DNA of 64,000 bases from an uncultured Nitrospiraceae bacterium (GTDB lineage Bacteria > Nitrospirota > Thermodesulfovibrionia > Thermodesulfovibrionales > SM23-35), in the NCBI GenBank assembly GCA_963727775.1, contig CAVSHB010000001.1, forward strand, positions 32,001-96,000, read 5' to 3'. The notes beneath the pieces are model-generated. The model was not told where the DNA came from, did not search any database, and was given only the letters and a program-made list of their open reading frames with translations. This document shows positions 1,358-21,258 of the stretch, one piece after another. Made by a program: the position numbers and the translations under genes. How positions within the stretch are numbered: position 1 is the stretch's first letter; each line of letters begins with the position of its first letter.

Positions 1358-3754
1358 ATGTCTATCAGATTAAAACTTACTATTATGTTTATGGTCTTTG
1401 TCTTAATCCCTTCGCTTTTTATCAGCGTTTTAACTTTCACTAAGTATAAAAAATCTTTAGAGACCATCCGCCTTTCAGAGCTCCAAGATATTGCTGCTTT
1501 TAAGGCGGATAGGATAGAGACATACTTTGCCTCATTAAAGGCTGATATAGAGATAGCCCAGGGCTATTACAATATCAAGAAGAACCTTCCTGTACTCACC
1601 CGGCTTACTGACGACCCGAACAATCCTAAGTTCCTTGCTGCTAAAAAAATGCTTGATGAACAATTACAACGGATGCAATCAGTTTTAGGCCTGTCTGATA
1701 TTATGCTGGTTAATCCCATTGGCGAGGTCGTTTACTCCAGTAACCCTAAACACATCCCCAAAGACTTTTTGAATCCCCTTCCTGACCCGCAACAAAAGGC
1801 TTTTGCAGAAGGGAAAAATAGAGTATATTTTTCCGATATCTTTTTAAACAAAGAGCAAAGCAACAGGCCGGCAATGCTGGTTACTGCTCCGGCCTCTGAT
1901 TTTGACGGAACTTTTATTGAGGTCATTGCTTTTGAAATAGACATGGCCTCCATTTATAAGCTTATTCAGGATGTAACCGGGCTTGGCACTACCGGAGAGG
2001 TCCTGGTGGGAAAGAAAATAGGAAACGAGGCGATATATTTGAATCCCTTAAGGCATGACCCAGAAGCAGCTCTTAAGAAAACTATAAATATAGGCGGGAC
2101 GCTTGGCGGCCCTATTCAAGGGGCTGCGCAGGGCAGAAAAGGAGCCGGCCGGTTAATTGATTACAGGGGTAAGGAAGTTATCGCAGCTTGGCGGTATATC
2201 CCTTCTTTAGATTGGGGAATAGTGGCTAAAATTGATACCGAGGAAGCATTTGCCGACGTAATAAATTTGAGGAATGTGGTCATTATAATCCTGTCTATTG
2301 TTTTTGTTCTATGCGGCATAATAGCATTTTCGATAGCCCAGTCTATTTCAGCGCCTATTAAAACTCTCTCTAAAGGCGCAGAGATAATCGGAAGCGGGAA
2401 TTTAGACTATAAAATTGGAAGCAATCTAAAGGATGAAATAGGTCAGCTTTCAAGAACATTTGACAAAATGACCCAGGATTTAAAGAAGATCACTGCTTCG
2501 CGCGATGAATTGAACAGTGAAATCGCTGAACGCAAGCGGGCTGAAAGTGTTACGCAGGCCCAGCTAAAGATTCTGGCCGTGGCCAATTCGAAAACACTGT
2601 CTACGGATGGAGTGCTTCGGCTGGTGTTGGATGAAATCGAAGCTCAGACAAACAGCAAGATCGGCTTTTACCATTTTATGGAGGCCGATAACGAAACGAT
2701 CTCGCTACAGAACTGGTCGACTAATACTCTCGGAAACATGTGCACCGCAGAGGGCAAAGGCAGTCACTACCCAGTTTCCCGGGCTGGCGTCTGGACGGAT
2801 TGTGTGCATGAGCAGCGTCCGGTAATCCATAATGACTACTCTTCTCTGCCTCATCGCAAGGGGCTGCCTCCCGGACACGCGCCTGTCATCCGGGAAATGG
2901 TTGTCCCGCTTCTAAGAGATGGTCGGATCGTAGCGATCATCGGCGTAGGCAACAAGCCAAGCAATTATGACGAGACCGACATTGCAAATGCTTTGCTACT
3001 CGGGGACATCTCATGGGAAATCGTCGAGCGCAAGCAGGCAGAAGAAGAATTGCGCAGGCTTACAGAAGAGTTGAAGAGCTCCAACGCTGATCTGGAGCAG
3101 TTTGCCTATGCCGCTTCGCATGACCTTCAGGAACCCCTGCGCGTGGTCGCAGGATTTGTCAGTCTGCTCGAAAAGAGGTATAGAGAGAAACTCGATGATA
3201 AGGCCCGCGAGTTTATCGATTACGCCGTTGATGGCACCAAGAGGATGCAGCTACTCATTAAAGACCTCCTGGCATATTCACAGGTTGGGACAAGGAGGAA
3301 GACCTTTGAACCGACAAATTGCTCAGTAGCTTTGGAACAGGCAATCTACAATCTGCATAAGGCTGTCGAGGAAAGTGGCGCAGAAGTGACCTACGACCTG
3401 CTGCCGATAGTATCGGGTGATTCTTCACAGCTCACCAGATTGTTCCAGAACCTCATTGGAAATGCAATTAAATACCATGGGAAAGATAAGCCGGAGATTC
3501 ATATTTCAGCTCAAAGGAAAGGAGATGAGTGGGTATTTTCAGTGCAGGACAACGGTATCGGCATTGAATCTCAATATTTTGAGAAGATATTTGATGTTTT
3601 TCGCCGTCTTCATACAAGAGAAGAGTATGATGGCACCGGGATAGGGCTGGCAATATGCAAGAAAATTGTGGAGAGGCACGGTGGAAAAATCTCGGTTGAA
3701 TCGGCTCCCGGCAAAGGTTCGACGTTCTACTTTACAGTGCCTGCCAGCAACTGA
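1358..3754 (+). CDS. Membrane sensor histidine kinase (Cache-HAMP-GAF-HisKA-HATPase)
   Basis: Two TM helices, HAMP (DEIGQLSRTF), GAF, H-box ASHDLQEPLR, N-box NLIGNAIKY, G boxes DNGIG and GTGIGL. Confidence 0.93.
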   Translation: MSIRLKLTIMFMVFVLIPSLFISVLTFTKYKKSLETIRLSELQDIAAFKADRIETYFASLKADIEIAQGYYNIKKNLPVLTRLTDDPNNPKFLAAKKMLDEQLQRMQSVLGLSDIMLVNPIGEVVYSSNPKHIPKDFLNPLPDPQQKAFAEGKNRVYFSDIFLNKEQSNRPAMLVTAPASDFDGTFIEVIAFEIDMASIYKLIQDVTGLGTTGEVLVGKKIGNEAIYLNPLRHDPEAALKKTINIGGTLGGPIQGAAQGRKGAGRLIDYRGKEVIAAWRYIPSLDWGIVAKIDTEEAFADVINLRNVVIIILSIVFVLCGIIAFSIAQSISAPIKTLSKGAEIIGSGNLDYKIGSNLKDEIGQLSRTFDKMTQDLKKITASRDELNSEIAERKRAESVTQAQLKILAVANSKTLSTDGVLRLVLDEIEAQTNSKIGFYHFMEADNETISLQNWSTNTLGNMCTAEGKGSHYPVSRAGVWTDCVHEQRPVIHNDYSSLPHRKGLPPGHAPVIREMVVPLLRDGRIVAIIGVGNKPSNYDETDIANALLLGDISWEIVERKQAEEELRRLTEELKSSNADLEQFAYAASHDLQEPLRVVAGFVSLLEKRYREKLDDKAREFIDYAVDGTKRMQLLIKDLLAYSQVGTRRKTFEPTNCSVALEQAIYNLHKAVEESGAEVTYDLLPIVSGDSSQLTRLFQNLIGNAIKYHGKDKPEIHISAQRKGDEWVFSVQDNGIGIESQYFEKIFDVFRRLHTREEYDGTGIGLAICKKIVERHGGKISVESAPGKGSTFYFTVPASN

Positions 3755-4498
3755 CCGACAAAGCTTGTTTTGGAAGAAGTCGCTACCTTCTAACCCCAAA
3801 TAATATCGCATAGTTCTTTCGATAATCCTCAATATCTTCTTTCTGCAGAATCATTCAGTATAGATAAAAAGTCTCAAATTCTGATAAGTGCGAGGGATGC
3901 GCCTTTGATGAAAAAATCTTGAATCATCAAGTCTTTCCATTTTCAACACGTTGTAGGGTATGCCGTGTAAAACATATGACTTGTCGGTTAAAGTCCGACT
4001 GTGGGAATTTGGTAGCTCACCCACATAGCTTGAGGGAGGTGCAAAGGGTAACCTGAAGCATTAAGTTTCCTGACAAAGGCTCCGAAAGGGAGCTGAGCAA
4101 ACCCGCAGGCCGCAGCGTAAGCGAACCTATGTGTAGCCTCGTTAGTGATAAACGGAGTTGTCGACCCTCTCCTACATTGGGGAAGACCGTAGCATCTATC
4201 CTAACAGAAACTACCGTAACCGATAGATGGGCTCCCGGGGTGACAGGGGTGGCATGCAGGGGAAGCCATATGATAATAAACACGGGAGACCCGTGTCGAT
4301 GCCTTCAGAGGGTAACTGGTGGATATAAGGAAACGAAGTTTCACTGGGTCGGCATGGGAGTCGGAGTTGCCCATAGTACCGCTACTATCTCAAAGACAAC
4401 ATAACTTTGAGAGAGGGAAGGGGCAATACCTTCATCATGTTTCCGAAGGAGTAAAGGAAAGGAGATTGCGGCAACGCTATAAACTCCAGTAGTTCTGG

Positions 4499-4534
4499 GA
4501 ACTTCAGAGGAAACTATACCAGTAGACCAAGCGG
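4499..4534 (+). pseudogene. Relic of the outer intron's RT N-terminus
   Basis: Reads ELQRKLYQ*TKR after an AGGAG RBS-like site, then runs almost directly into domain V, so most of the ORF is deleted. Confidence 0.55.
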
Positions 4535-5110
4535 TAGCGAAAGCCTCTGGAAGAAGATGATTGGAAAGCCGGATTCGGGAAAACCGACCGTCCGGTTGTG
4601 TGTCCAGCGAAGGCTGGTGTGTTCAGCAGGAGACAGTCCTGCCATGGCAATAGTCAGAAGCCATGTAGTTAGGATGGCAAGGTAAAGGGAAACCGATATC
4701 CTGAAGCCCATCGACACTATCATCAAAGGGATGATAACGAGTTGCCAGGCCGCAACGAAAGTGAACGTAGAGGTGGCCCCGAGAGTTCGAAGCCCTGAAG
4801 GCCGAGTTTTCAACCGTAGGGTGAAGGCAGCATAGGTAATCGAAAACTGACTGATACGGTTATTTACTTCAGCGGGGTGATAGCGGCGGCATGGCAGCAA
4901 GGGCACACCGAGCAACTGGAGAAACCCTCATCGCCCCAGTGAGAAATCACCGGAGCAAGGTAAGTCCTATAACCAGAAACACTGGGAAGTGGGCTGAAGG
5001 CGGAAGGGTGGCGGAAGGGTCAGCAGTAGCGAAGAAGCAGGGTAATTCCTGTGGAGCGAAGAGGCCCTACTTTTGGCAATCCTCTAACAACATTGTGAGG
5101 CAGGGATGGA

Positions 5111-5746
5111 ATGACAAAGACATCTGTTAGTCTGCAAGAGCTGAGGAAGAGGATCTACGTCAAGGCGAAAGCTGATAAGCATCATCGCTTTTGGGGATTG
5201 TATGTTCACGTATGCAAGGTGGAGACGCTCCAATCGGCCTATGAGATGGCCAAACGCAATGACGGGGCACCGGGCATTGATGGTGTCACCTTCGAGGCTA
5301 TTGAGGAAAGCGGGCTGGAGGAGTTTCTCCTCGGCATACGAAATGAACTGCTTTCATGGATGTACCTGCCTATGCGAAATCGGAAGAAAGAGATACCAAA
5401 GGACAACGGAAGAGTTCGTGTTTTGGGGATACCAACAATCCGAGATAGGGTAGTGCAGGGCGCGCTTAAGCTTATTCTTGAACCAATCTTTGAAGCTGAC
5501 TTTCAAGAAGGCTCATACGGGTACCGTCCGAAGCGGACAGCGCATCAGGCGGTGCATCGGGTCGCAGATGCGGTAGTCCACAATAAAACACGGGTCATCG
5601 ACGTTGACCTCAAGGCATACTTTGATACAGTGCGTCATGACATATTGCTGAGCAAAGTAGCAAGAAGGGTCAACGATGACAGAGTGATGTGGCTGCTCAG
5701 ACTCATACTAAAAGTCAGTGGTAAGCGCGGAGTTCCACAGGGCGGA
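5111..5746 (+). pseudogene. ltrA: Group II intron RT/maturase, N-terminal part (disrupted by RIT)
   Basis: GAPGIDG, RVLGIPTIRDR, SYGYRP, DVDLKAYFD, ends at GVPQGG; the track ORF runs on into the RIT end to 5785. Confidence 0.93.
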
Positions 5747-5772
5747 TTATCCAAAGCTTTGGATAATCCGCC
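5741..5772. repeat. Perfect 32-bp palindrome at the RIT left junction
   Basis: GGCGGATTATCCAAAG|CTTTGGATAATCCGCC. Confidence 0.97.
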
Positions 5773-5857
5773 TTATCAAAAGTAATATATTATCCAAAGT
5801 AAATGCTGTAAGCGCTTGATACAGTTAGGTTTGTGTTTCATTTACTTTGGATAATAC
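5767..5857. repeat. RIT left inverted repeat (91 bp)
   Basis: Reverse complement of 9147-9237 with 3 mismatches; contains TTATCCAAAG boxes in both orientations. Confidence 0.95.
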
Positions 5858-5865
5858 TGCGTGTG

Positions 5866-6876
5866 TTAGAGACGGCTTAGCCAGGCAAGTAGCCCTTCAT
5901 CTTGGTTCCACTGCGGCAAATCAGTTACAACCATGTCGGGATATGCTTTTTCTAACGCTTTTCGTTTCAGCTCAGTATCTGTACGGGCATAAATTTCAGT
6001 TGTTGAAATATCGACATGCCCTAAAAGATCCCGGATATAAATCAGGTTAATCCCTGCCTGTAACAAATTCATCGCCTTCGTATGCCTGAAAACATGGGGG
6101 GTAACATTATCCGGAATAATCGAAGACACTGCCCTTGCACGAGACACGTATTTGTTCAGAATGAATGTAACGCCCATTGGAGTCAGCTTGCCGCGCTGGC
6201 GATTTACAAATAACGGGCGGTCCTGCATGCCGTTTTGAAGCAGATAAGTTTCGGTCATGTACTGCCGCAGCAGGGATTCCATATTGGACATAATTGGAAC
6301 CTGCCTGGTTTTGCGGCCTTTGCCAGTCAGGGTCAGGATTGGTGGATGATCCAATCGGACATCACGAACCTTTAGATCAATCAACTCCTGAACTCTGGCC
6401 CCTGTATCATACAGTGCCGAAAGCATCGTTAAGTCACGACGGCCACTGGCTTTGGAAAGATCGGGCTGGGCAAGAATGAGTTTCAATGCATCAGGTGTGA
6501 GATAATGCACCGTTGGCTTTGGAGCTTTCTTCATCGGAATTGAGAGAATTTTCTGGTATGACAATAGACCGACAGGGTCTTCGACCTGCATATACCTACA
6601 AAAGCCATGAATACAGGCCAATCGTTGGTTGCGCGTAGCGATACTGCTTTTTCTGTCTTGTTCAAGCCATGAGAGGAACCCAACCACGAGTGGCTCATCG
6701 ATGCGTTGTAGACAGATATATTCAATGGACAGGCCGCAACCCTGTTTGCAGTATATGAGAAACAGTTTGAAAGTATCCCGATAAGATTTGATCGTGTTGG
6801 GGCTGACATTGCGCTGGCCCGGCAGATAAACGGATAGGTAATGAGATAATGCCTTGGCAAAGTCAGTTGGTTTCAT
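5866..6876 (-). CDS. ritC: RIT tyrosine recombinase C
   Basis: LYDTGARVQE, GKGRKTR, HVFRHT, LLGH, TEIY catalytic motifs; ATG at 6876 with GAGGAG RBS. Confidence 0.9.
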   Translation of the reverse strand: MKPTDFAKALSHYLSVYLPGQRNVSPNTIKSYRDTFKLFLIYCKQGCGLSIEYICLQRIDEPLVVGFLSWLEQDRKSSIATRNQRLACIHGFCRYMQVEDPVGLLSYQKILSIPMKKAPKPTVHYLTPDALKLILAQPDLSKASGRRDLTMLSALYDTGARVQELIDLKVRDVRLDHPPILTLTGKGRKTRQVPIMSNMESLLRQYMTETYLLQNGMQDRPLFVNRQRGKLTPMGVTFILNKYVSRARAVSSIIPDNVTPHVFRHTKAMNLLQAGINLIYIRDLLGHVDISTTEIYARTDTELKRKALEKAYPDMVVTDLPQWNQDEGLLAWLSRL

Positions 6877-7849
6877 AGTCTTCACTCCTCATAATAGGTA
6901 TGACATGGCCAAAAGCATGGTCCACCTTTGCCGTTATATCCGGATAAAGTTCAGCGGTCAGCCTCAAGTACTGGGATGTATCGCTAAAGGAATGATGGCC
7001 CAGATACGTTTTGAGAATAGGCAGGTAGGCAGTCAAATCCTTTCCTTCCAGCACCCAGCGCCTCAGACAATGAACAGCATGGCTATGCCTCAAATCGTGG
7101 AGCCGCGGCCCTTTTCCCCATCCACCATGAGAAATCCGGGCTTTCCAAAGGAATTTCCTGAAATTTTTATAGACATTCCCTTTGGTTATCGTTTTTCCGT
7201 TCGGAGAAGGAAAGAAATAAGCGTTAGAATCAGAAAACAAATGGACCTGCTTCATATAGGCAGGACATCTATGAAGTAATTCCTTGGACATAGGAACCAG
7301 CCTGTCCTTGTTGAATTTCCCATCCATAATCGTGAGGACACCAGTGTTCAAATCTACATCCCGCACTTTGAGATTCAGCGCCTCCGAAATACGCAACCCA
7401 CAGCCATACAACATACGGAACAGCAGCGGCATGATCCAATGTCTGTTCGGAACTTCGGCACAGTAATGGCAAGCATCCACTTGTTTGAAAAACTCTGCAA
7501 GCTCATCATTGCTGAAAATGTAGGGAATGTATCTGGGTCCCTTCGGGAGGGTATTTTTGGGAAGCACATAAGCATGCACCCCGAGACGAGTCATGTACAT
7601 GGCCAGTTGCCGTACAACGCATACCCTGATCTGTAAAGTCGCCTGAGCTTCATTCGGGCGTTTCTGACGCCATGAATCGACAAGTTGTTTGGACAGTACC
7701 GGTTCTGTGCAGCCGTATGTCAGACAGAACTGATCAAAATGGTAAAGCACCCGTGCACTGCTGTCATACTTATACCCCAGCGAACGCTTTTGTAGAATCA
7801 CTTCCTGGATAAATTCCTGAAATGGACTGCTATATATGAATTCGGTCAT
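6863..7849 (-). CDS. ritB: RIT tyrosine recombinase B
   Basis: LYGCGLRISE, HDLRHSHAV, YLGH, YL; ATG overlaps the ritA stop (ATGA). Confidence 0.9.
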   Translation of the reverse strand: MTEFIYSSPFQEFIQEVILQKRSLGYKYDSSARVLYHFDQFCLTYGCTEPVLSKQLVDSWRQKRPNEAQATLQIRVCVVRQLAMYMTRLGVHAYVLPKNTLPKGPRYIPYIFSNDELAEFFKQVDACHYCAEVPNRHWIMPLLFRMLYGCGLRISEALNLKVRDVDLNTGVLTIMDGKFNKDRLVPMSKELLHRCPAYMKQVHLFSDSNAYFFPSPNGKTITKGNVYKNFRKFLWKARISHGGWGKGPRLHDLRHSHAVHCLRRWVLEGKDLTAYLPILKTYLGHHSFSDTSQYLRLTAELYPDITAKVDHAFGHVIPIMRSEDYETN

Positions 7850-9081
7850 GACTCGAACACCCCCTCGGGGTTCAGCGCGCATTCACGTAGCATCTCCACG
7901 TCCACCTTAAGATAGACAGCCGTTGAATCCGAACTGACGTGTCCCAATATATCGGAAATAACGGATAAGGGTGTTTTCTCTTGAAGTAATCTGCTTGCCA
8001 GCGTGTGCCGTAAGGAATGCATGCCTCTCTTTTTCTGAGGAGAAATCGGGATTTTGGCCAGTCTCATATATTTGACCAAGATTTGATGCAGTCTGTCTTC
8101 ATCCGAGAATGGTTCCAGTGGCGCAAGGTGCCGCAAAAAAACGTAGGGGCTTTCCACCTTGGGACGCCCATTTTTCAGATAATCAATGATCGCCCAGCCG
8201 ATATCGGGAAGAAGTGGGAGGCTCAGCACTCCGGACGTTTTGGACTGTATCAATTCGATGCGATTATCCGGCCATTTCAGGTTGTCCAATTTCAAACGCT
8301 TGATATCTATCGTACGGAGGCCCAACCGCGCGACCAGAAGGATCATTGCATAATCCCTTCTTCCGGCAGGATTGCCTCTGTCTATGACATCGAGCAACTT
8401 GGCGACATGCTCCGGAGTCCATACCGAAGGAATTCTGTTTTGCTTTCTGGCCTTAATCGCAGGGATGGTTTCTGCCAGGTCCTGTGGATGAAGATCGTTA
8501 GTGTGAAGATAGCGCAAAAACGAGCGCAACGCACAAAGATGCAATTCTACAGTCTTATAGCTGTACCCCAACAACGTGTTGATATAGCCGGATACATGTT
8601 TAGCGGTAATATCTGAATAAGAGACAATCTTTTGTGATTCCAAAAAACTCAGAAACTGTTCGGAAATTTTACCATAGTGATTTTGTGTCACTTTGGAGTA
8701 TTCCTTCTGCTGGCAATGGGTTACATAGTACTGCAGTACCTCCTTGAATTCGTCGTTATACAGCAGCTCTTTCTGTTTGTAGTACCTGCGCAGAATGCTG
8801 CCATGTTGCTGGAAGTCACCAAGCATCCGGACAACTCGAAAGGCGTTAATGATCGATTGCGTTAGATCTCCCGCTTCCTCTAATTCGAAAAAGTTATACT
8901 GCTTGTCCAGAAAACGCATACCCACTTCTTCTGCAAAGTGGTCGACTCCTTCGTTTTCGAAAAACGCGACAATACGTTTCCACATCATGCGATAGTACTT
9001 TACCGTATCTTTTTTGTAATGGAGACGGTACAGTTCTTTTTCCAGTCGTGTGATTAAATCTTGCAAAGGCGGGCTGTTCAT
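7846..9081 (-). CDS. ritA: RIT tyrosine recombinase A
   Basis: RDYAMILLVARLGLR, HSLRHT, ILGH, VYL; 411 aa. Confidence 0.9.
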   Translation of the reverse strand: MNSPPLQDLITRLEKELYRLHYKKDTVKYYRMMWKRIVAFFENEGVDHFAEEVGMRFLDKQYNFFELEEAGDLTQSIINAFRVVRMLGDFQQHGSILRRYYKQKELLYNDEFKEVLQYYVTHCQQKEYSKVTQNHYGKISEQFLSFLESQKIVSYSDITAKHVSGYINTLLGYSYKTVELHLCALRSFLRYLHTNDLHPQDLAETIPAIKARKQNRIPSVWTPEHVAKLLDVIDRGNPAGRRDYAMILLVARLGLRTIDIKRLKLDNLKWPDNRIELIQSKTSGVLSLPLLPDIGWAIIDYLKNGRPKVESPYVFLRHLAPLEPFSDEDRLHQILVKYMRLAKIPISPQKKRGMHSLRHTLASRLLQEKTPLSVISDILGHVSSDSTAVYLKVDVEMLRECALNPEGVFES

Positions 9082-9146
9082 CGGTATTCCTCCAAAATAT
9101 TTAGTGAGATCGGTTCTTCAATCTCCCATAAATACCTTGGTCTGCC

Positions 9147-9237
9147 GTATTATCCAAAGTAAATGAACCCCAAACCTAACTGTATCAAGCGCTTACAGCA
9201 TTTACTTTGGATAATATTTTACTTTTGATAAGGCGGA
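9147..9237. repeat. RIT right inverted repeat (91 bp)
   Basis: Inverted copy of 5767-5857, ending in GGCGGA. Confidence 0.95.
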
Positions 9238-9906
9238 GTAATCTCGCCCCTACTGTCGAATATCTATCTTAACGAGGTGGATAAGATGCTGGAGAAGGCG
9301 AAAATCGTAACGAGCAAATCTGGTTTTACCCATGTCGAATATGCTCGTTTTGCGGATGACCTTGTGGTACTCGTAGATGGGTATCGCCGCTGGGACTGGC
9401 TGGTAGAGAGGGTATATCGGCGACTTCTTGAGGAGTTCGCAAGAGTTGATGTAACAGTCAACGAAGAAAAGACACGACTGGTAGACCTGATGAAAGGAGA
9501 GAGCTTCAGCTTTCTGGGATTCGACATTCGGAGTGTCCGAACACTGAGTGACAAATCAGGAGTGCTTATTACGCCAAGGATGAAAGCGCGGACGACCCTT
9601 TTGCATAACCTCAAGGAAATCTTCCAGCGCTTCATATCGCAACCAGTGGGCCGGGTGATAGAACTGATCAACCCGAAACTCCGGGGCTGGGTTAACTACT
9701 TTAGGGTGGGACATTCCAGCAGGTGTTTTCAGTACGTAAAAGATTGGGTGGAGAAGAAGATACGGCGGCATCTTATGAGGGCTCGAAAACGGGGAGGCTT
9801 TGGCTGGGACAGGTGGAGTAGAGACTGGTTTTACGGGCATCTTGGGCTTTATGCCGATTATAAGGTGAGGTATTACCGTGGACTCGAAAGCGCTGCCAGC
9901 GGATAG
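9238..9906 (+). pseudogene. ltrA: Group II intron RT/maturase, C-terminal part
   Basis: VISPLLSNIYL, YARFADD catalytic motif, FSFLGF, thumb/X domain INPKLRGWVNYF; no endonuclease domain seen; the joined ORF is 434 aa. Confidence 0.93.
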
Positions 9907-10157
9907 GCATCATAACCCTTGAGGAGAAGCCAATAGGAAAGCGTAGTGCGGGAAATCCGCACGCTGCGTTTGACGTGGCAGGGAATGGAGAAGTGCCATG
10001 GCGAACCTAAACGGGCACGAAACTGGAAACGGTGGATACAGCCAAGGGGAGACCTACGGTAACTCGCCATTCTTTGACCCTACTGACGAGGGTGATGTAG
10101 GATGGAAAAAGTGGACACCAAAGTCAGATAAAATAAATGAAAGACGGAGGTGTCAGA

Positions 10158-10472
10158 ATGAAAGGGATTCCGCAGGGACGTTACACGAAGGAGTTTCGTG
10201 GGGAGGCAGTGAAGATGGTGTTAGCCGGGGGTATATCGTTGCTGGAGGCAGCTCACCGGCTGTCATTGCCGCCCTCGACGTTAGGGAACTGGGTCAAGGC
10301 GCATAAAGCTGGCAAGCTGGAAGATATAGGCAAGACACAGAAGCCACTGACGGAGCTAGAGATGGAACTGGCAAGGGTAAAGAAAGAGCTGGTAGAGACG
10401 AGAATGGAGCGTGATCTGCTAAAAAAAGCTGCCGCGTACTTTGCGAAGGAGTCGCTGCCCGGTACGCGCTAA
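10158..10472 (+). CDS. IS3 transposase OrfA (HTH)
   Basis: RYTKEFR..AV..V HTH, MERDLLKKAAAYFAKE end; GGAGG RBS. Confidence 0.92.
   Translation: MKGIPQGRYTKEFRGEAVKMVLAGGISLLEAAHRLSLPPSTLGNWVKAHKAGKLEDIGKTQKPLTELEMELARVKKELVETRMERDLLKKAAAYFAKESLPGTR
10421..10428 (+). other. Probable -1 programmed frameshift site (A7G) fusing OrfA and OrfB
   Basis: AAAAAAAG near the orfA 3' end, typical of IS3. Confidence 0.7.
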
Positions 10473-11332
10473 TGAAAGAAATGCGACTTCAATATTCAGT
10501 GCCGCTGATGTGCCGGATATATAACGTATCGGCAAGCGGATACTATGCACACGTGACAAGGCCGCTTTCTAAGCGGGGGCAGGAAGACGCCCGCTTGGAG
10601 GTTGAGATTAAGGCTGCACATAAGAGGACACGGCGGGTATGCGGCGCTGAGAGATTACAGAAGGATTTGGCAGACAACGGTATTGCAGTGGGTGTTTGCC
10701 GGATCAAGCGACTCAGGAAGAAGCTCGGTATACGCTGTAAGCAGACGAAGAAATTCAAAACTACAACTGACTCAAAACATACGCTTCCGGTGGCTGAGAA
10801 CCTACTGGACCAGCAGTTTGAAGTATCCAGGCCGAACATGGCATGGTTGAGCGATATAACATATGTTTGGACCGATGAAGGATGGCTGTACCTTGCCGCG
10901 CACAAGGATCTTTTTAACGGTGAGATAGTCGGATACGCAATGGGAGAACGGATAACGAAGAGCCTTGTAAGTCAGTCTTTATTCCGTGCCGTTGCAGCGA
11001 AGCGTCCAGGGAAGGGGCTGATTCATCACTCGGATCGCGGGAGCCAATATTGTGCTCATGATTATCGGAAGCTTCTTAATCAGTTCGGCATGACGGCATC
11101 AATGAGTAGAAAAGGGAATTGCTATGACAATGCCCCGATGGAGAGTTTCTGGGGCACGCTGAAGCAGGAGCTTGTCCATCACAGACGCTACAGGAACAGA
11201 CAAGAGGCAGTGCAGGATATCACGGAATATATCGAGATCTTCTACAACAGGCAGCGCCGACAGGCAAGACTTGGATATCTATCCCCAGTTGCTTATGAGT
11301 ATCAATTCTATGCACGAGAGCTGGCAGCATGA
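10472..11332 (+). CDS. IS3 transposase OrfB (DDE)
   Basis: WLSDITY, HHSDRGSQY, GNCYDNAPMESFWGTLKQE. Confidence 0.95.
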   Translation: MKEMRLQYSVPLMCRIYNVSASGYYAHVTRPLSKRGQEDARLEVEIKAAHKRTRRVCGAERLQKDLADNGIAVGVCRIKRLRKKLGIRCKQTKKFKTTTDSKHTLPVAENLLDQQFEVSRPNMAWLSDITYVWTDEGWLYLAAHKDLFNGEIVGYAMGERITKSLVSQSLFRAVAAKRPGKGLIHHSDRGSQYCAHDYRKLLNQFGMTASMSRKGNCYDNAPMESFWGTLKQELVHHRRYRNRQEAVQDITEYIEIFYNRQRRQARLGYLSPVAYEYQFYARELAA

Positions 11333-11720
11333 AAGGTTTGGTGTCCACTATTGACATCCGAGGTCAGGGGGAACTGGAGATAGAACCTTATGGCGACTAC
11401 GCCAGTTCTCTACTCTACTGTCTTCAACAAAACTTCCATCTTTGTTAGCACAAACGGTCTGTACCCAAAACTATAGACCGCAAATGCGGTAGATAGTTAA
11501 CCTTGTCGCTCAGGTGTCCTCCAAAGTATATCATCATAATATCTTTTAATTTTTAATATCCTCTTGTATTTTTTTTCATCGGAGATAACAGGGCAGCAAG
11601 TTGTATTCCAAGAAGAAATCCAAACTGTATCACTACCCCATATTTTCGTGCCTTGACAAATATCATAATCTTTCATTACGCTTGTTGCAGATAAAAAAAA
11701 TGTAAGGCGGTGGAGTCATT

Positions 11721-13025
11721 ATGGCCGATCCTTATGTGTTAGAGGACGGCGCACACATAGCTGTTGTGGGTGGAGGGCCGACAGGCTCTTTCTTCAGCAT
11801 CTTTGCACTCAAGATGGCAAAGATGGTTGGAAAAGAGATACATGTCACAATATTTGAACCGAAAGATTTTACTAAAGACGGCCCGTTAGGATGTAACAGA
11901 TGTGGCGGTATTATCTCCGAACTTCTTGTCCAGACCTTAGCTGTTGAAGGCATCAATCTTCCTGATACCCTCGTACAAAGAGGTATTAATTCCTACAAAT
12001 TACACACAAATCGCGGGAGTGCCTTTATAGAGACACCAGCCCATGAAAAAACCATAGCTGCAATATACAGAGGAGGAGGGCCAAAGGGGACCATTGGGAA
12101 GCATAAGGAAAGTTTCGATCAATTTCTTCTTGATCTTGCGGTAAGTGAAGGTGCTGTTCATACTTCTGTGAAGGTTGATCATATTGAAAATAGCAACGGA
12201 AGACCTGTTCTTTTTTCTAAGGAGCAGAAGCTTATGGAAGCAGATCTTGTAGTGGGAGCGATTGGAATAAAGAGCCAGACATCAAGAATATTCGAAGAAA
12301 TGGGGTTTGGATACAAAAAACCGGAGACGGTTACCGCAGCAATTGTAGAAATTGGCATGGATGAGAATATAATAGCTGAATATTTTGGAAATTCTGTTCA
12401 CCTGTTTCTCCTTCCGATTAAGGACACTAAGTTTGCAGCCATGATTCCCAAGGGCACATATATAACGGTCTGTATATTGGGTAGAAATATGAATACTGAT
12501 ACCGTAAACGCATTTATTCGTCAGCCAATTGTTCAGTCGGTTTTACCGCGGAAAGTGCCATATAAGATAGATTGTCGTTGTTTACCGAAAATGAACGTGA
12601 AGGCGCCTAAAGTGCCCTTTAATGACAGGGTTGTTCTTTGCGGTGATGCCGGTTCAACAAGGCTTTTTAAAGACGGGTTAGGCGCTGCATATCTTATGGG
12701 GAAGGCTGCTGCTAAGACAGCCGTATTGCAAGGTGTAAGCAGAAAGCATTTCCGTGATATGTATTACCCGGTTTATAAAAGCATAATCATTGATAACCGG
12801 TTTGGAAGAGCACTTTTCTTAACAACAGATGTATTGAAGAACAATATGCTCATGACAAAGAGTATGCTCGAAGTCGTGCAGAAAGAGCAAGGGAATCCTG
12901 CACATCCCAAAATACTTAGTTCGGTACTCTGGGACATGTTTACCGGCAACGAACGATATAAGAATATATTTCGCAGAGCTATGAGTTTGCCGATGCTCTA
13001 TGACTTATTAAAAGGGCTTATCTGA
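11721..13025 (+). CDS. FAD-dependent oxidoreductase, geranylgeranyl-reductase-like
   Basis: IAVVGGGPTG Rossmann motif, CNRCGG, LCGDAG...GLG FAD motif. Confidence 0.8.
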   Translation: MADPYVLEDGAHIAVVGGGPTGSFFSIFALKMAKMVGKEIHVTIFEPKDFTKDGPLGCNRCGGIISELLVQTLAVEGINLPDTLVQRGINSYKLHTNRGSAFIETPAHEKTIAAIYRGGGPKGTIGKHKESFDQFLLDLAVSEGAVHTSVKVDHIENSNGRPVLFSKEQKLMEADLVVGAIGIKSQTSRIFEEMGFGYKKPETVTAAIVEIGMDENIIAEYFGNSVHLFLLPIKDTKFAAMIPKGTYITVCILGRNMNTDTVNAFIRQPIVQSVLPRKVPYKIDCRCLPKMNVKAPKVPFNDRVVLCGDAGSTRLFKDGLGAAYLMGKAAAKTAVLQGVSRKHFRDMYYPVYKSIIIDNRFGRALFLTTDVLKNNMLMTKSMLEVVQKEQGNPAHPKILSSVLWDMFTGNERYKNIFRRAMSLPMLYDLLKGLI

Positions 13026-13956: not shown

Positions 13957-14799
13957 CTATTTGTTGATCTGATACCTTCTGTGCTGGATATAAGAATCTT
14001 TAACAGCTATATAAGGGTCGATGGCTGATTCTTTCAGGATTTCATAATCGCCCATCTGCAGTGAAGTATTGTTGAAATATTCGTATGCATTAATCGCAAA
14101 CGCAGTTTCTGCGGGATTGATATAATTTACAGGAGACAGGAACCCGTCACCTACCGATCCGATTGTGTCTCTCAGTGATGAAGGACCAATAAACGGCCAT
14201 ACGATATAAAGGCCATCCCCTATCCCGTAAAAACCCAGAGTCATCCCGAGGTCTTTTTCCTGGCTTTCGATTTTCCACATCTTTGCAATATCAAACAGTC
14301 CGGCTATACCAAAGACTGTGTTCACGCCGAAACGGGCGAGTTCAAGAGCCGCGGATTTTATTTTTCCCTGCAAAGAGGCATTGACAAACCGCACGGGCAT
14401 AGAGAGGTTGACGAAAAAATTTCGCGCGGAAATGCGTACTCCCTCAGGGACTACGGTGTTATACCCCTTAGCCGCGGGCTTCATTACCCAGAAATATAGC
14501 CTGTCGTTAAAAGTGAAGACCATGCGATTCCATGGTTCCAGCGGGTCGGCAACGGATTGCGCTTCAAGAAATTCCGGTTCTGCCTCAGCTTCAGCAGGAG
14601 GACTATCTCCGGCTTTTAGCGTATTTTCATCGGGAGATGGAAGCGTCCCGGCATGTGCAGATACCGCCCAAAAAAACAAAACTATAAAAAATAGGGTCTG
14701 ACAAGCCGTTTTTTTGATTGCATTTCCAAGTGATAATTCTAAATTCATTTCGAGGACCAGATCACGATTAGTTCTTATAACAGGCAAAGAGATGGGCAA
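13957..14799 (-). CDS. mlaA: MlaA/VacJ-family lipid transport protein (true start probably downstream)
   Basis: DPLEPWNR, RFGVNTVFGIAGLFD, DLGMTLG, GPSSLRD, DPY motifs. Confidence 0.88.
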   Translation of the reverse strand: MPISLPVIRTNRDLVLEMNLELSLGNAIKKTACQTLFFIVLFFWAVSAHAGTLPSPDENTLKAGDSPPAEAEAEPEFLEAQSVADPLEPWNRMVFTFNDRLYFWVMKPAAKGYNTVVPEGVRISARNFFVNLSMPVRFVNASLQGKIKSAALELARFGVNTVFGIAGLFDIAKMWKIESQEKDLGMTLGFYGIGDGLYIVWPFIGPSSLRDTIGSVGDGFLSPVNYINPAETAFAINAYEYFNNTSLQMGDYEILKESAIDPYIAVKDSYIQHRRYQINK

Positions 14800-14807
14800 A
14801 GATTATC

Positions 14808-15479
14808 TCATTGTGTTTTGCCCGATGAAAAATTATTAATTTTGGCTTTCAGCATCGAAATTAAACCGTTAAACCCTTTGCCGTCGATGACACTTACAAA
14901 TTGAGACCTTGTGACAGCAAGCTGACTGACGCCGGATATCTGTATGTCGACAATGCGCCACTTGCCTTCCATTTTGCGAAGCTTGTAATAAAAGTCTGTT
15001 GTATCATTATCCCGGTCGATGAGTTTGCTCACAACGGTAACAGTGTCCTGGACAGGTTTTGATTCTGAAACGATCTCGAACTTTTCTCCGGAATAATCAT
15101 TAAAACGGCCTGCATAGGTTGCGGCAGTCCATTCGGTGTAAGTTTCAAGCAGTAATCGCCTTTCCTTTTCATTGAGCGTCTTCCAGGTTTTTCCGACTGA
15201 TATCCCCGCCATATAGGACAAAGCGAAAGAATCTTTAATAACAGGCTCTAAAAGTTTGTAGCGTCCGGGGTACCCGAGTTCTTTAGCCCTTTGCATAGAC
15301 TCTATAAGTGCAGCATTGAATTCGGTTATGGCCTCTGAAGGACCTGACTGTGCTGCATTCCCAAAGGCGCCGTAAAACACCGCACAGAGACAAAAGACTG
15401 CGCTTATCAGGCAGCGATGTTTGATGACATATTTGAGCTTCGGCATATCCTTCTTATTTCTTCTGTAAAATAAATTCAT
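14808..15479 (-). CDS. hpnM: MlaC/Ttg2D-family hopanoid-associated periplasmic protein
   Basis: Signal peptide; WRIVDIQISGVSQLAVTRSQF motif; divergent from hpnN. Confidence 0.8.
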   Translation of the reverse strand: MNLFYRRNKKDMPKLKYVIKHRCLISAVFCLCAVFYGAFGNAAQSGPSEAITEFNAALIESMQRAKELGYPGRYKLLEPVIKDSFALSYMAGISVGKTWKTLNEKERRLLLETYTEWTAATYAGRFNDYSGEKFEIVSESKPVQDTVTVVSKLIDRDNDTTDFYYKLRKMEGKWRIVDIQISGVSQLAVTRSQFVSVIDGKGFNGLISMLKAKINNFSSGKTQ

Positions 15480-15570
15480 GAAAAAAGTTAATATACAAAG
15501 TTAAAGATTAACTATTAATAATACCGGAAAATCCCGGTTTTTGAAATATGTTCGTTACAAAATACGGAGA

Positions 15571-18226
15571 ATGGTGAACAATAACAAAGAATATTCAAAG
15601 AAGCTCATTGGATGGTGGGTCGGATTCGTTCAGCGGAATGCGGTCCCGGTGCTCATTGCCGTTCTGTTGACCTGCGGCGGTACGGTTCTTTATCTGAAGC
15701 AGAATTTCAGAATAAACACCGACCTTAACAGCATGATTTCCGAGAAGCTTCATTTCCGCAAAATCGAAAAGGATTTTTCCAGGGCCTTCCCTCAGCTTTC
15801 CGATACCATTGTTGTGGTAATCGATGCAGAGACCGCCGAGCAGGCAGTCTCTGCGCGCAAACACATGGCAGGGCGGCTGAGAAAAGAAACGGGTCTTTTC
15901 AAGACAGTCTTTGAGCCGGGGGGAGGCGATTTTTTTGAAAAGAACGGGCTGCTGTACATGGACACGGACGAACTGGAAGAGCTTGCGGATAAACTGGCGA
16001 CTGCTCAGCCTTTGCTTGCCTTTCTGTCTAAGGATTTAAGTTTGCGCGGGCTCTTCTCAGTGCTTGACATGGCACTGAACAGTCCGGAGGCCACAAAGAC
16101 ACAGGACAGCAGCATGGATCTTCTTTTCGATCATCTGAGCAAGACGTTCGAAAGCGCGGGGGTAGGTCGATCCCGGCAGATGCCATGGGAAAGCATCATG
16201 TTCGGAGAAAAGGCAGCGGCTGAACAGCGCCGTCAGTTTATTATCACTCAGCCTTATCTTGACGCAGCAAATCCTTCCGCAGACGAAGTTTCCCTTGAAA
16301 CTGTCCGCCGCATTGCGAAAGAACTGGGTATTACTGAAGCAAACGGCGTTAAAATGCGGATTACCGGGGATGTCGCCCTGTCTTATGAAAACATGATGAC
16401 GGTGAGAAACAGCACTGGCATTGCAACCGTTGCATCCATAATTCTGGTAGGCGTCCTTCTGTTCATCGGTCTCGGTTCAGGACGAATGGTTTTGGCAAGT
16501 CTTCTAACTCTGATCATCGGGCTTCTCTGGACTACAGGCTTTGCCATTGCTTTTGTAGGCAGCCTGAACCTCATTTCCATCACGTTTGCCGTGCTCTTTA
16601 TCGGCCTCGGCATAGACTACAGCATTCAGTTCTGTCTGCGATACAGGGAGCTGATTCAGTCGGGGCATAAGCGGTGGGAGGGCCTTACAACAACCGCAAA
16701 GGGAGTGGGAAGGAGTCTTTTTCTCAGCTGCGTCACAGTCGCTTTAGGTTTTTATTCATTTGCGCCCACAGCTTATGCCGGCGTCGCCGAACTCGGCCTT
16801 ATATCCGGGACAGGCATGTTTATCAGTTTTTTTGCTACTATCACTGTTCTTCCTGCATTGTTGACTTTATTCAAAACAGGTCAAAGCAAAGGGCTGCCGG
16901 CGCCGACAAAAAAAATAATTTCGGAGCTGCCTTATAAATATTCAAGGACAATTATCGCAGGAGCCGTTATATTGGGATTAGCATCAGTTCCATTTCTCCA
17001 CAGAGTTTTTTTCGATTATAACCCGCTGAATCTTTACAGTAAAACATCGGAGTCCGTCAGCGCCATAAAAGAGCTTTTCGACAATCCTGAAGCGCAGCCC
17101 TGGACAATCTCCGTTCTTGCAAGCGGAGAAGAGAATGCAAAACGACTTGCGGAAAGTTTAAAGAAACTTAAAGAGGTAAAAGCAGCCATAACACTTTCCG
17201 ACTTGGTCCCGGAAAAACAGCCGGAAAAACTACGCATCCTTTCCGATATAGCGCTATTTATGCCTCAGAACATTACCGATCTTAAAATAAAAAATCTAAA
17301 ATATGAAGAAAATATCAAGGCCCTGAAAGGGTTTGATAATGCATTAAAGAAGTCCCTCCTTTCATCCGCAAAGGAGGACCCTCATGTCAGACGTTTATAT
17401 GCAAGTATTCAGAATTTTAAAGCCCGGCTTGATGATCCTGTAAAAGGGCAAAGAGCGGTTGCAGCATTGGAAAAAAGTATTTTGGTAAGCCTTCCGGACC
17501 TTTTCAAAAGGCTTGGCTCTTCACTTCAGGCCAAAGCTTTCAGCCGGTCCGACCTTCCGCGGGAATTAGCGGAACAATATGTCTCTGTCGACGGCCGTTA
17601 CCGGGTCCAGGTTTTCCCCGTCGAAAATATTATGGATATAGATGCGCTTAAACGGTTTGTCCTGGCGGTGCGCGCCGTTGCCCCTGATGCTACAGACGCC
17701 CCTGTAACTATCTATGAATCGGGGAGGGCCGTTGTTTCATCTTTCAGTGAGGCCGTTTTATACGCGATGGTTGCCATCATGCTCTTTTTATTGATTGAGT
17801 TGAGAAGCTTCTTCGCGACTGCACTGATACTCGTACCTCTCATATTGGCCATGTTTCTGACCGGGGCCGCATCGGTTTTACTCAAAATCCCGCTGAATTT
17901 TGCCAATGTTATTGTAGTGCCTCTCCTGTTGGGTATCGGTGTGCATAGCGGTATTATTTTTATGCTGCGTTATCTGACGGAACCTCCGTCGGATGGGAAT
18001 ATGCTCAGGACAAGCACTGCCCGCGCCGTATTGTTCAGCACACTGACCCTGCTTATCAGCACAGGCAGCCTTTCTTTTTTCGCCCCACAGAGGAATCGCA
18101 AGCATGGGCATCCTTCTAACTATTTGCTTAAGTTTTTTGTTAGTCTGCACACTTTTATTACTGCCTGCACTAATCGAATTATACGGAAAGTATCTTGAAA
18201 AAAGTCACAAAAACAATTTCTCATGA
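15571..18226 (+). CDS. hpnN: MMPL/RND hopanoid transporter (one-base frameshift near the 3' end)
   Basis: LNLISITFAVLFIGLGIDY, GVAELG, LNFANVIVVPLLLGIG; removing one T at 18075-18080 restores SPHRGIASMG and a final TM helix. Confidence 0.88.
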
Positions 18227-18292
18227 CCACATATGTTATCTACGGCGTTGCAAAAGTAGGATGTTTTGTTATAATTACCAAGAGCTTTAATA

Positions 18293-19204
18293 ATGCAGAA
18301 CACTAAACAACGGGACATAACATATCAGGTCGTAGTGGCGGACGACCTGGGCAGGGCTTCATCTGTCAACGCGGCTATTGCGGAAGCACACGACAGGGGG
18401 ATCGTTACTGCTGCAAGTCTTATGGCGAAGGGCGACGCCTTTGAAGAGGCTGTGCAGATGGCATCGCAGCGCAGTCGTCTGTCTGTAGGCCTCCACGTGA
18501 CCTTCTGTGACGGCCGTGCTGTTCTGCAGCCTTCAGAGATACCTGATCTGGTTGATAAAGACGGCTGCTTCGAAGAAAGCCCTGAAAAGGCATGGATAAA
18601 ATGCATGAGGCGCGGTGTTCTCTCTCAGATTGAAGCGGAGGTGGAAGCGCAATTTGACTGCCTGGAAAAGGCGGGGATCAAACCCACTCATGTGGACGGT
18701 CACCATCACCTGCAAATGCATCCGCTCATATTTGAAGCAATATGCAAGCAGGCTTCAAAAAGGGGAGTCGGATGGATACGGATTCCGAATGAGGCCATTT
18801 CGATTGTCCTCAGCTTGCGCTCTTTTTCACGCGGTGTTATGCCGCTGCTCGAGCGGGTTGTCTTTGGGGTACTCAGGACATATAACCTGAGAACAGCCGC
18901 GAAATACGGAATAAACGTAGCCTACAGCTGCATGGGACTTTCATGGACCGGTAGTATTGATGAGCAAAGCTTGCTTGAACTGTTAGGGATGACTGAGGGT
19001 CCGGTCAGTGAAATCTTTACGCATCCGGATATTGCCACAGACAAGGGGCGGAAGGAGCTGGAAGCTCTTACGTCAGTCGAAGTACGCAAGAAGCTTGCTT
19101 TCCTCGGAATTGAACCGGTGGGATATAGAGAACTTTCCGGCAAGGAATTGTACCGGGATTCTGTATGTGAAAGAAAAATAAAAAAGAGAAGTTATTCTTT
19201 TTGA
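18293..19204 (+). CDS. hpnK: ChbG/HpnK-family deacetylase
   Basis: ADDLG, GLHVT, HVDGHHH, THP motifs; hopanoid cluster context. Confidence 0.82.
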   Translation: MQNTKQRDITYQVVVADDLGRASSVNAAIAEAHDRGIVTAASLMAKGDAFEEAVQMASQRSRLSVGLHVTFCDGRAVLQPSEIPDLVDKDGCFEESPEKAWIKCMRRGVLSQIEAEVEAQFDCLEKAGIKPTHVDGHHHLQMHPLIFEAICKQASKRGVGWIRIPNEAISIVLSLRSFSRGVMPLLERVVFGVLRTYNLRTAAKYGINVAYSCMGLSWTGSIDEQSLLELLGMTEGPVSEIFTHPDIATDKGRKELEALTSVEVRKKLAFLGIEPVGYRELSGKELYRDSVCERKIKKRSYSF

Positions 19205-19242
19205 ATTAACAAATAAAAAGTATTTGGACCTTTTATACAAAG

Positions 19243-21258
19243 ATGAACCCATTATTTGGAAACGAGAAAAACAGATTTTTTAAACAGCCTTTAAAAACAA
19301 AGGCCGCTGTCTTGCCGTCTGGGCCCAAAGGTAAGACTGTGTTGATTTCACCGCCTTCGGGGTTGCTCGATAAGGTGTCGAAGGCTGCAAGAAAGACCCA
19401 GTCGTATTATATGAACCAGCAGCATGAGGATGGTTACTGGTGGTATGAGCTTGAATCCAACGTGACCATAACGTCTGAATACTTGATGCTGCTACATTTC
19501 CTCGGTCTGAAGGACGATGCTAAATACAAGAAAATAGCGCACCATATTCTGAAAAACCAAAGACCGGACGGTACATGGGCGGTATATTGGGAAGGAAAGG
19601 GCGACCTCAGCACTACCGTTGAAGCATATTTTGCTCTTAAACTTGCAGGTCTCTCCGCGGACGATCCGAGGCTGAGAAAGGCAAGAGAATTTATTATAGA
19701 AAATGGTGGAGTTGAGGCGTCAAGGGTTTTTACAAAAATATACCTTGCCATATTCGGGGAGTTCGACTGGAAGGCGGTCCCCTCAATTCCTGTTGAGTTT
19801 ATCTTTGTACCTTCGTGGTTCCCTTTTAACATATATAATTTATCGAGCTGGGCAAGGTCTACAATCGTGCCTTTGATGGCCATCCTCGATACCAAACCCT
19901 TCTGTACAATACCTGAAAATGCAGGGATAAGGGAGTTATACAAAGACCACGATCAGATATCTTCCATAACGACCAAAAGCTTTGCCCCGTATTTATGGAA
20001 AAGACTGTTTATCGCAGCCGACAGAATGATAAAAGCGATGGAGAAATTTCCTGTGCGGCCATGGAGGGCAAAGGCACTGAAAAACACCGAGAGATGGATA
20101 TTGGAGCGTCAGGACCCAAGCGGCGACTGGGGAGGAATACAGCCCGCTATGCTTAATTCAACACTTGCTCTCGCAGCGATGGGGCACGAAGTGTCTGATG
20201 GACCTGTCGGGAAAGGGCTTGAAGCCCTTGAAAGGTTTACCATTGAAGATGAGAATGAACTTATTCTCCAATCGTGTATTTCTCCGATATGGGACACGGC
20301 ACTAACGTCGCTTGCCTTGATTTATTCAGGAATACAAATGGACCACCTCGCTCTTGAGAGGGCCTGCAAATGGCTGGCTTCCAAACAGATTTTCCGGAAA
20401 GGGGACTGGAGCATTAAGATGCCGGACCTTGAGCCGGGAGGATGGGCTTTTGAGTTCGAAAATAACTGGTACCCGGATATAGATGACACTTCTGTGGTTT
20501 TACTGCTTCTCTATAAATACGCCAATAAAGACTATATCAAGTCTGATAACCTGAAAAAGGGGCTCGACTGGGTAATCGGGATGCAGGGAAAAGACGGGGG
20601 TTGGGGCGCCTTTGATGTGGATAACAACCTGAAAATTTTGAACCAGCTTCCTTTTGGAGACCTGGAGTCAATGATAGACCCGAGTACCCCGGATATTACG
20701 GGAAGGGGTTTGGAACTTCTCGGCTCATTCGGATACGGCCTGTCCGATAATATTGTTAAAAGGGCGATTGGGTTTCTCAAGAGAACACAGGAAACGGACG
20801 GGTCCTGGTGGGGAAGATGGGGCGTCAATTACATCTACGGCACCAGCATAGTGCTTGCGGGGCTTGAATCCGTTAAAGAAGACATGTCTAAACCATACAT
20901 AAAAAAGGCGGTCACCTGGCTGAAAGCCAACCAAAATACTGACGGCGGATGGGGAGAGCGTTGCGAATCTTATATGGACCCCGCCTTTAAATGCCGGGGC
21001 GAAAGCACTCCATCGCAGACCTCATGGGCCATCCTGTCTCTGATTGCAGCCGGTGAAGTAACGAGTAAAGAAGTGATTAAGGGAATTAAATATCTTCTTA
21101 AGACGCAGAAAAAAGACGGCACATGGGATGAAGAGGCATTTACAGGGACGGGGTTCCCGAAGTATTTTTTCATAAGATACCATAATTACAGAAATTGTTT
21201 CCCCTTAATGGCCTTCGGCAAGTTCCTTTCGAAATTCAAAGAAGGAATCAATAAATGA
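19243..21258 (+). CDS. shc: Squalene-hopene cyclase
   Basis: YPDIDDT (DXDD), QW repeats, GRWGVNYIYGT, FTGTGFP. Confidence 0.97.
   Translation: MNPLFGNEKNRFFKQPLKTKAAVLPSGPKGKTVLISPPSGLLDKVSKAARKTQSYYMNQQHEDGYWWYELESNVTITSEYLMLLHFLGLKDDAKYKKIAHHILKNQRPDGTWAVYWEGKGDLSTTVEAYFALKLAGLSADDPRLRKAREFIIENGGVEASRVFTKIYLAIFGEFDWKAVPSIPVEFIFVPSWFPFNIYNLSSWARSTIVPLMAILDTKPFCTIPENAGIRELYKDHDQISSITTKSFAPYLWKRLFIAADRMIKAMEKFPVRPWRAKALKNTERWILERQDPSGDWGGIQPAMLNSTLALAAMGHEVSDGPVGKGLEALERFTIEDENELILQSCISPIWDTALTSLALIYSGIQMDHLALERACKWLASKQIFRKGDWSIKMPDLEPGGWAFEFENNWYPDIDDTSVVLLLLYKYANKDYIKSDNLKKGLDWVIGMQGKDGGWGAFDVDNNLKILNQLPFGDLESMIDPSTPDITGRGLELLGSFGYGLSDNIVKRAIGFLKRTQETDGSWWGRWGVNYIYGTSIVLAGLESVKEDMSKPYIKKAVTWLKANQNTDGGWGERCESYMDPAFKCRGESTPSQTSWAILSLIAAGEVTSKEVIKGIKYLLKTQKKDGTWDEEAFTGTGFPKYFFIRYHNYRNCFPLMAFGKFLSKFKEGINK

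Follow-up and report, generated by a model that had tools for sequence, protein, structure and literature searches.

Group II introns that lie within other group II introns, or twintrons, are established in bacteria and archaea, as the original prediction for the DNA analyzed here recognized. In T. elongatus, intron TeI3 lies within TeI4, and the same intron-rich genome contains an intron broken by an insertion sequence (IS), TeI4g::ISEL2f (PMC2882425). Nested intron arrays are found in M. acetivorans (Dai and Zimmerly, 2003, as summarized in PMC4424553), and Trichodesmium contains the T.e.I7/I8 twintron (PMC4649490). The available parts of these papers describe nested arrays of up to five introns and introns that aim at other mobile elements (PMC4424553, PMC2882425, PMC4649490). 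Recombinase in trio (RIT) elements have also been described (PMC3414803, PMC10214605, PMC5737581, PMC8138268), and one of these accounts states that their target specificity was ‘not formally tested’ (PMC10214605). Here we analyze a locus that brings such elements together, a stack of two group II introns, a RIT element and an IS3-family element in an uncultured Nitrospiraceae bacterium (assembly GCA_963727775.1, here G000; 3.43 Mb in 4 contigs, C1 to C4). The stack lies in a stretch of 64,000 nucleotides (G000:C1:32001-96000; the window), and all coordinates below are those of the window unless they are prefixed C1 to C4.

The stack is found between a histidine kinase gene that ends at 3754 and an oxidoreductase-like gene that starts at 11721. 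Between these genes there are two matches to group II domain I, two halves of a reverse transcriptase (RT) gene, three minus-strand tyrosine recombinase genes and an IS3 gene pair, which had been predicted to represent four nested elements with all junctions closing. Analysis of this region confirmed that four mobile elements are nested one in another at 3958-11418, since every named junction closes and natural empty alleles of the inner-intron, IS3 and RIT sites (L015, L047 and contigs from other samples), found by searching relatives, match the peeled forms. As predicted, removal of the RIT element (5747-9237) produces an open frame of 434 amino acids (aa); this frame reads PQGGVISP, with a cut position that can slide within the GGCGGA repeat, and a natural RIT-free inner intron (L047) aligns over positions 1-1995 of 1995 nt with 0 gaps and 95.5% identity. 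Likewise, removal of the inner intron (4598-10083) and of IS3 plus one GGG restores domain V of the outer intron and its link to domain VI, and the peeled sequence is identical over 116 of 116 nt to an intron of a related genome, G023 (L015), across both insertion sites, which are empty there. Other contigs from other samples link 5740 to 9232, and 4597 to 11367 or 11369. With one intron precisely within another and the host restored on removal, this locus contains a twintron.

It is likely that the locus is a pile-up of three separate insertions, two of them targeted and one due to chance, whose host is a non-autonomous group II intron that had reached an intergenic gap by retrohoming. The outer insertion is fixed as having preceded the inner one, and the inner intron was probably in place before the RIT element; the IS3 insertion cannot be placed in this time order.

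The outer intron is divided into three parts on the plus strand. Its 5′ part (3958-4597), recognized by RF02003, relatives and fold, contains domains I-IV, a decayed RT open reading frame (ORF) stub and domain V to its last base pair; the last base of domain V, the V-VI joiner and the GGG target duplication are at 10084-10092, as defined by the empty allele L015; and domain VI and the 3′ end (11367-11418) are assigned by fold and identity to G023. This element is a group II intron by its domain I (RF02003 match at 3981-4120, 89.9 bits), its domain V-VI fold, with the domain V triad AGC at 4567-4569, its ends (5′ GTATG, a GUGYG variant common to relatives, and 3′ AC) and pairing between exon-binding site 1 (EBS1) and intron-binding site 1 (IBS1), in which EBS1 CCTACA (4171-4176) is a 6/6 complement of the 5′ exon end TGTAGG (3952-3957). 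The exon end (T/A)GTAGG precedes 6 related outer copies in other genomes (L009, L010, L015, L037, L039 and L044), and four further related copies have different exon ends. Once peeled, the outer intron is about 698 nt long, its ORF stub (about 4475-4540) contains 2 stops in 22 codons, and its 5′ part is 86% identical to an ORF-bearing intron at C1:477072. ORF-less introns of this type also occur at other sites in G023, G022 and G028, which indicates a non-autonomous lineage that was probably moved in trans. No open stretch of more than 52 codons crosses the joined host site, so the outer intron's site is intergenic; among 40 relatives, there was no match to the empty host site across both flanks. 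The outer intron would have retrohomed into this gap.

Several other features of outer-type and related introns were observed. In the G023 intron (L015:1262-1502), two adjacent ~90-nt domain I blocks are in swapped order relative to the window and other relatives, and there is a ~50-nt deletion, either of natural origin or from an assembly error. The motif CCTGATATAATT is present near outer-type and other intron insertion sites (L015:1905-1990, G000:C1:482610-482630 and C4:121000) and may mark a cassette or promoter context. An ORF-less group II intron of another type (G000:C4:120304-120979, minus strand; RF00029, 52.3 bits) has an unoccupied domain V end.

The inner intron is also on the plus strand, with a 5′ part (4598-5746) that contains domain I (RF02003 match at 4624-4760, 109.5 bits) and the 5′ half of the RT gene (5111-5746), and a 3′ part (9238-10083) that contains the RT 3′ half plus maturase (9238-9906) and domains V-VI (9937-10083), with a long domain VI, as assigned by Pfam, Rfam and fold. 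Both RT halves match Pfam RVT_1 (profile positions 1-122 and 124-205) and the 3′ half also matches GIIM; a Pfam scan found no endonuclease domain in this RT, which is 70-75% identical to RTs of Paraburkholderia and Bradyrhizobium plasmids. Its domain I, domain V-VI, RT-maturase ORF in domain IV and EBS1-IBS1 pairing make this element a group II intron. According to the predicted fold, its insertion point splits the last base pair of outer domain V. The inner EBS1, AACCGT (4812-4817, plus strand), was located by alignment, covaries with exon ends and pairs at 6/6 positions with the usual domain V end, ACGGTT.

To place this insertion in context, relatives of the inner intron were collected from the best 80 of at least 503 metagenome loci plus 11 loci from 401 genomes of the phylum (91 in all). 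After removal of 1 self match, 1 locus without an RT match, 23 without a visible 5′ end, 6 duplicates and 1 mis-parsed locus, 59 were scored, of which 56 had enough flanking sequence for the domain V test. A domain-V-like hairpin was found directly 5′ of 34 of these 56 relatives, compared to 103 of 2700 random positions, and an independent domain V rule recovered 36 of 60 relatives versus 116 of 18000 controls. On the 3′ side, a domain-VI-like start and end were present in 38/62 relatives. EBS1 and IBS1 paired at 5 or more of 6 positions in 47/59 relatives, with about 5 rows that appear mis-anchored by eye (L054, L065, L070, L086 and L121) kept as misses, and the Watson-Crick sum of 282 was not reached in any of 10000 permutations (mean 200), within a set in which kin are not independent. 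At sites other than domain V, EBS1 is altered along with the exon end (e.g. L085, L090 and L099), confirming the identity of the EBS1 loop. The hosts of these relatives include several intron types, both ORF-bearing and ORF-less, and no two of the three inner 3′ ends in this genome precede the same host domain VI, suggesting that homing occurred three times. Together, these comparisons support the proposal that the inner intron belongs to a lineage that aims at the conserved 3′ end of domain V. In this widespread lineage, base pairing of the EBS1 loop with the conserved 3′ strand of domain V would direct retrohoming into other introns, and the insertion within domain V would make splicing of the host dependent on removal of the inner intron.

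Among the relatives, L074, L095, L125, L126 and L131 apparently occupy the domain V end of introns of the same kind as themselves or are arranged in tandem with such an intron, and the more distant L027, L028, L029, L031, L133 and L137 are inserted a few bases behind GGGTCA(G/A)-TCTT, a motif resembling the terminus of a short repeated element. In this genome, a 5′-truncated inner intron (G000:C2:303988-304439; last 400 nt, 97.5% identity) is followed by a host domain VI and lies directly after the stop codon of a gene.

The RIT element interrupts the inner RT gene on the minus strand (5747-9237; the element proper, 5747-9231, plus one GGCGGA copy), as delimited by junction closure, inverted repeats and a second copy. 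It contains intact ritA-type (7846-9081; 411 aa; Phage_integrase and SAM-like domains), ritB-type (6863-7882; 339 aa) and ritC-type (5866-6885; 339 aa) tyrosine recombinase genes, each recognized by Pfam and with an RH...Y motif. These three adjacent overlapping genes, the terminal inverted repeats (97 nt, 95%, at 5764-5860 and 9144-9240) and the multiple copies identify it as a RIT element. The second copy (C1:478298-481774) has 1 difference in 3459 nt and lies, oriented opposite to its RT, in the PQGG codons of the ORF-bearing outer-type intron. Contig C4 starts with a third RIT end that lies behind another RT half. The assembly has 7 RVT_1 matches, and every one of them is an RT half broken at profile position 119-123; this includes 4/4 RT 5′ halves. 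In other genomes (loci from Paenibacillus, Cohnella and a Nitrospiraceae record), 5 of 6 RIT relatives abut an RT piece at PQG and the sixth is cut by a contig end. Therefore, a RIT lineage that aims at the PQGG codons of intron RT genes is supported by the position of these copies.

The organization of the RIT ends suggests how such insertions might occur. A perfect 32-bp palindrome (5741-5772) consists of the target 6-mer, two 10-bp head-to-head arms and a second 6-bp spacer, so that the overall layout is target 6-mer, two head-to-head arms, second 6-mer, core and third 6-mer. This palindrome is on the 5′ side of the RT in all 6 loci that show this side, regardless of core orientation; RIT genes and the RT are co-directional in 5 loci and opposed in 3; and the second (middle) 6-mer differs from the left target 6-mer in 4/6 loci. 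In the proposed mechanism, tyrosine-recombinase crossover would occur at the 6-bp Gly-Gly codons of PQGG, and the joint of the excised element would be palindromic and carry two equivalent sites for crossover. Recombination at one or the other would allow insertion in either orientation and always place the 20-bp palindrome on the 5′ side of the target, and the unused spacer would record an earlier RIT target.

Additional RIT-related sequences are present in this genome. A 20-bp RIT end scar (G000:C1:318655-318674) forms the junction between an RT 5′ half that belongs to an unrelated intron and a copy, at 99.8%, of the inner 3′ half, after which comes another host domain VI. Members of a second RIT family (G000:C1:340539-343616 and C3:215162-218047) are inserted close to the end of IS91-type (Y2_Tnp) transposase genes, both at one position (profile 1-171 of 183), in both orientations and with their own palindrome on the 5′ side of the target; 3 other Y2_Tnp genes are whole in this genome. 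A third RIT is found at C3:342091-344860.

The fourth element (10093-11366, plus strand; 1274 bp), defined by Pfam matches, inverted repeats and copies, has an orfA with an HTH_Tnp_1 domain that ends at 10472, an orfB with an rve domain at 10472-11332, and an A7 run near 10421. Members of the IS3 family have orfA and orfB genes and TG...CA ends, and the HTH and rve domains, 30-bp inverted repeats and short (GGG) target duplication place this element in that family. In the fold, its insertion site is where the 5′ strand of the outer domain VI stem begins, so IS3 pushes 1277 nt between outer domains V and VI, which has probably ended splicing of the outer intron. With the RT split as well, sequential splicing of this twintron copy is unlikely, and the stack would now be dead as a retroelement because it has no intact RT and 1277 nt between domains V and VI.

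Some observations weigh against the proposed pile-up, or against parts of it. The original prediction looked to Infernal models of group II intron domains for confirmation, and the Rfam models recognized both introns with RF02003 and the natural outer domain V-VI of L015 with RF00029 (41.9 bits, above the cut-off of 40); the inner domain V-VI scored only 32.5 bits, below that cut-off, because its domain VI is long. The inner EBS1 pairs at only 5/6 positions with the domain V end of its own host, CCGGTT (4592-4597). The domain V rule was failed by 22 of 56 relatives, some of which clearly occupy other sites, and relatives with 54-64% identity are instead preceded by a GGGTCA-type motif, so the idea that all inner relatives target domain V was rejected. 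For the RIT lineage, the sample of relatives is 6 loci, one of them uninformative, and an intact RT could be absent from an assembly of 4 contigs, one of which starts inside a RIT end. Finally, no contig spans the stack among the assembled contigs of 4 of 22 listed runs (the best contained 0.39 of sampled words), these contigs contain no spliced junction of this strain, and no record was listed across the filled junctions of the stack. The assembly is thus supported by the correct pairing of unique flanks and not by reads.

It is also conceivable, if improbable, that the stack still works, with precise RIT excision acting as a switch that restores the RT and, through it, sequential splicing and mobility. 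All three recombinases retain intact frames, a single nt distinguishes the two full RIT copies and precise RIT loss would restore the 434-aa frame; in addition, insertions in domain IV need not block RNA folding. However, no excised allele of this strain was seen in the assembled contigs. RNA run X4 contains a RIT-free contig, but its 71 differences over 1461 nt assign it to another population, and the sole scar in the genome (C1:318655) retains 20 bp and has a broken frame. Even after RIT loss, outer domains V and VI would still be separated by IS3.

According to the original prediction, each of these elements landed in a conserved catalytic part of another mobile element, in a chain of hyperparasitism that spares host genes. 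A coordinated chain of this kind, in which IS3 also aims at catalytic parts, might be suggested by the position of IS3 in the conserved G-run of domain VI and by another copy that abuts a Rep gene, but it is very unlikely and largely refuted already. There are 8 IS3 copies in the genome, 99.8-100% identical, with a 3-4 bp duplication at 5/8 of them, unrelated flanks and no common motif; only 1/8 is in an intron end. Of the frames flanking 4 of the 7 other sites, which encode a DNA methylase, peptidase C14, a histidine kinase and the Rep protein, 3/4 are host-type genes. IS3 targeting was rejected on these grounds, and with unrelated flanks its insertion is best read as chance, an actively spreading IS3 having presumably fallen into the outer domain VI stem. 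The prediction is partly supported, in that the inner intron and the RIT element belong to lineages that seek introns, at the domain V end and at a conserved RT motif, respectively. PQGG is a conserved motif of RTs and not the YADD catalytic motif, IS3 copies adjoin host-type genes, and, because IS3 is untargeted, it is an overstatement that all of the elements hit catalytic parts and spare the host.

Also very unlikely is an assembly chimera, in which repeats were misjoined and the four-deep order exists in no single molecule: the RIT (3.5 kb), IS3 (1.3 kb) and inner 3′ half (0.87 kb) all have near-identical copies elsewhere, two introns are fused at C1:318655, genuinely or as an artefact, and no spanning read is available from the contigs surveyed, but unique flanks pair across each repeat, inner 5′ with inner 3′ (gapless in L047) and the outer intron's domains V and VI with each other (identical to G023), and the IS3 and RIT duplications agree on both sides. 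The locus is best interpreted as the product of two targeted events and a single chance event, and not as a coordinated system.

More tentatively, group II introns may carry a guild of specialized parasites. One member would be an intron lineage with a guide loop for the universal domain V end, able to colonize almost any group II intron. The other would be a RIT lineage that recognizes PQGG codons across RT classes, shuts down all retrohoming in a genome and reshuffles intron halves via a two-site palindromic joint. If this is true, RITs would be natural suppressors of retroelements, and these sequences would provide the first defined target and crossover model for testing RIT movement.

Elsewhere in the window, positions 13957-21258 contain what we take to be a hopanoid synthesis and transport cluster, judging from translations that resemble a lipoprotein, an MlaC-like protein, an MMPL transporter, a deacetylase-like protein and a squalene-hopene cyclase. 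Rfam matches to mir-2059 and astro_FSE were dismissed as chance.

The twintron described here shares with its bacterial and archaeal counterparts site-specific homing into other group II introns, often outside host genes, and repeated independent insertions, and it shares with T. elongatus an IS in an intron (TeI4g::ISEL2f in that genome). It differs from them, as far as the available parts of the published accounts describe, in that their sites are in the RT ORF region or domain I whereas this one is the last base pair of domain V, and in that the inner intron bears an RT while its host is ORF-less and only distantly related. Literature searches found no paper on bacterial homing into the domain V end or on RITs in RT genes, within a coverage that included few subscription papers; Simon 2008 and Ricker 2013 may already describe these targets. 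The accessible parts of four further papers contain nothing on domain V homing (PMC12584367, PMC3552965, PMC3534033, PMC5572947). Intron pipelines reported to drop twintrons (PMC4028801, PMC8919778) would miss introns that home to the domain V end, which is a renewable, host-neutral target in nearly every intron-bearing genome.

Another parallel may be the psbF twintron of Euglena, in which the insertion would be in domain V, a position that the literature consulted did not confirm. There, as here, the inner intron would have to leave before the catalytic domain of its host can form. The Euglena case represents a single event between degenerate chloroplast introns, whereas the lineage of the present intron is bacterial and mobile, and its EBS1 reads the consensus of domain V.

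The RIT element resembles those described previously in its three overlapping tyrosine recombinases of 339-411 aa, terminal inverted repeats, near-identical copies and palindromic ends. Its inverted repeats are 97 nt long, compared to the 34 bp quoted in one account (PMC10214605), and the published descriptions, in the parts available, mention no intron targets and leave mobility and target specificity untested, whereas the element here targets the PQGG codon pair in RT genes of introns. An intact RIT, a scar, both orientations and a 6-bp target are all available in this genome, which makes a direct test of RIT mobility and target choice possible. The IS3 element, with its orfA and orfB, TG...CA ends, 30-bp inverted repeats and 3-4 bp duplication, shows no notable difference from its family. 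In this way, the four-deep stack is a striking example and not a new system, a place where two target-specific intron parasites and an ordinary IS met by chance, and its main value lies in a testable model of the RIT target and joint and in domain V homing, more than in the depth of its nesting.

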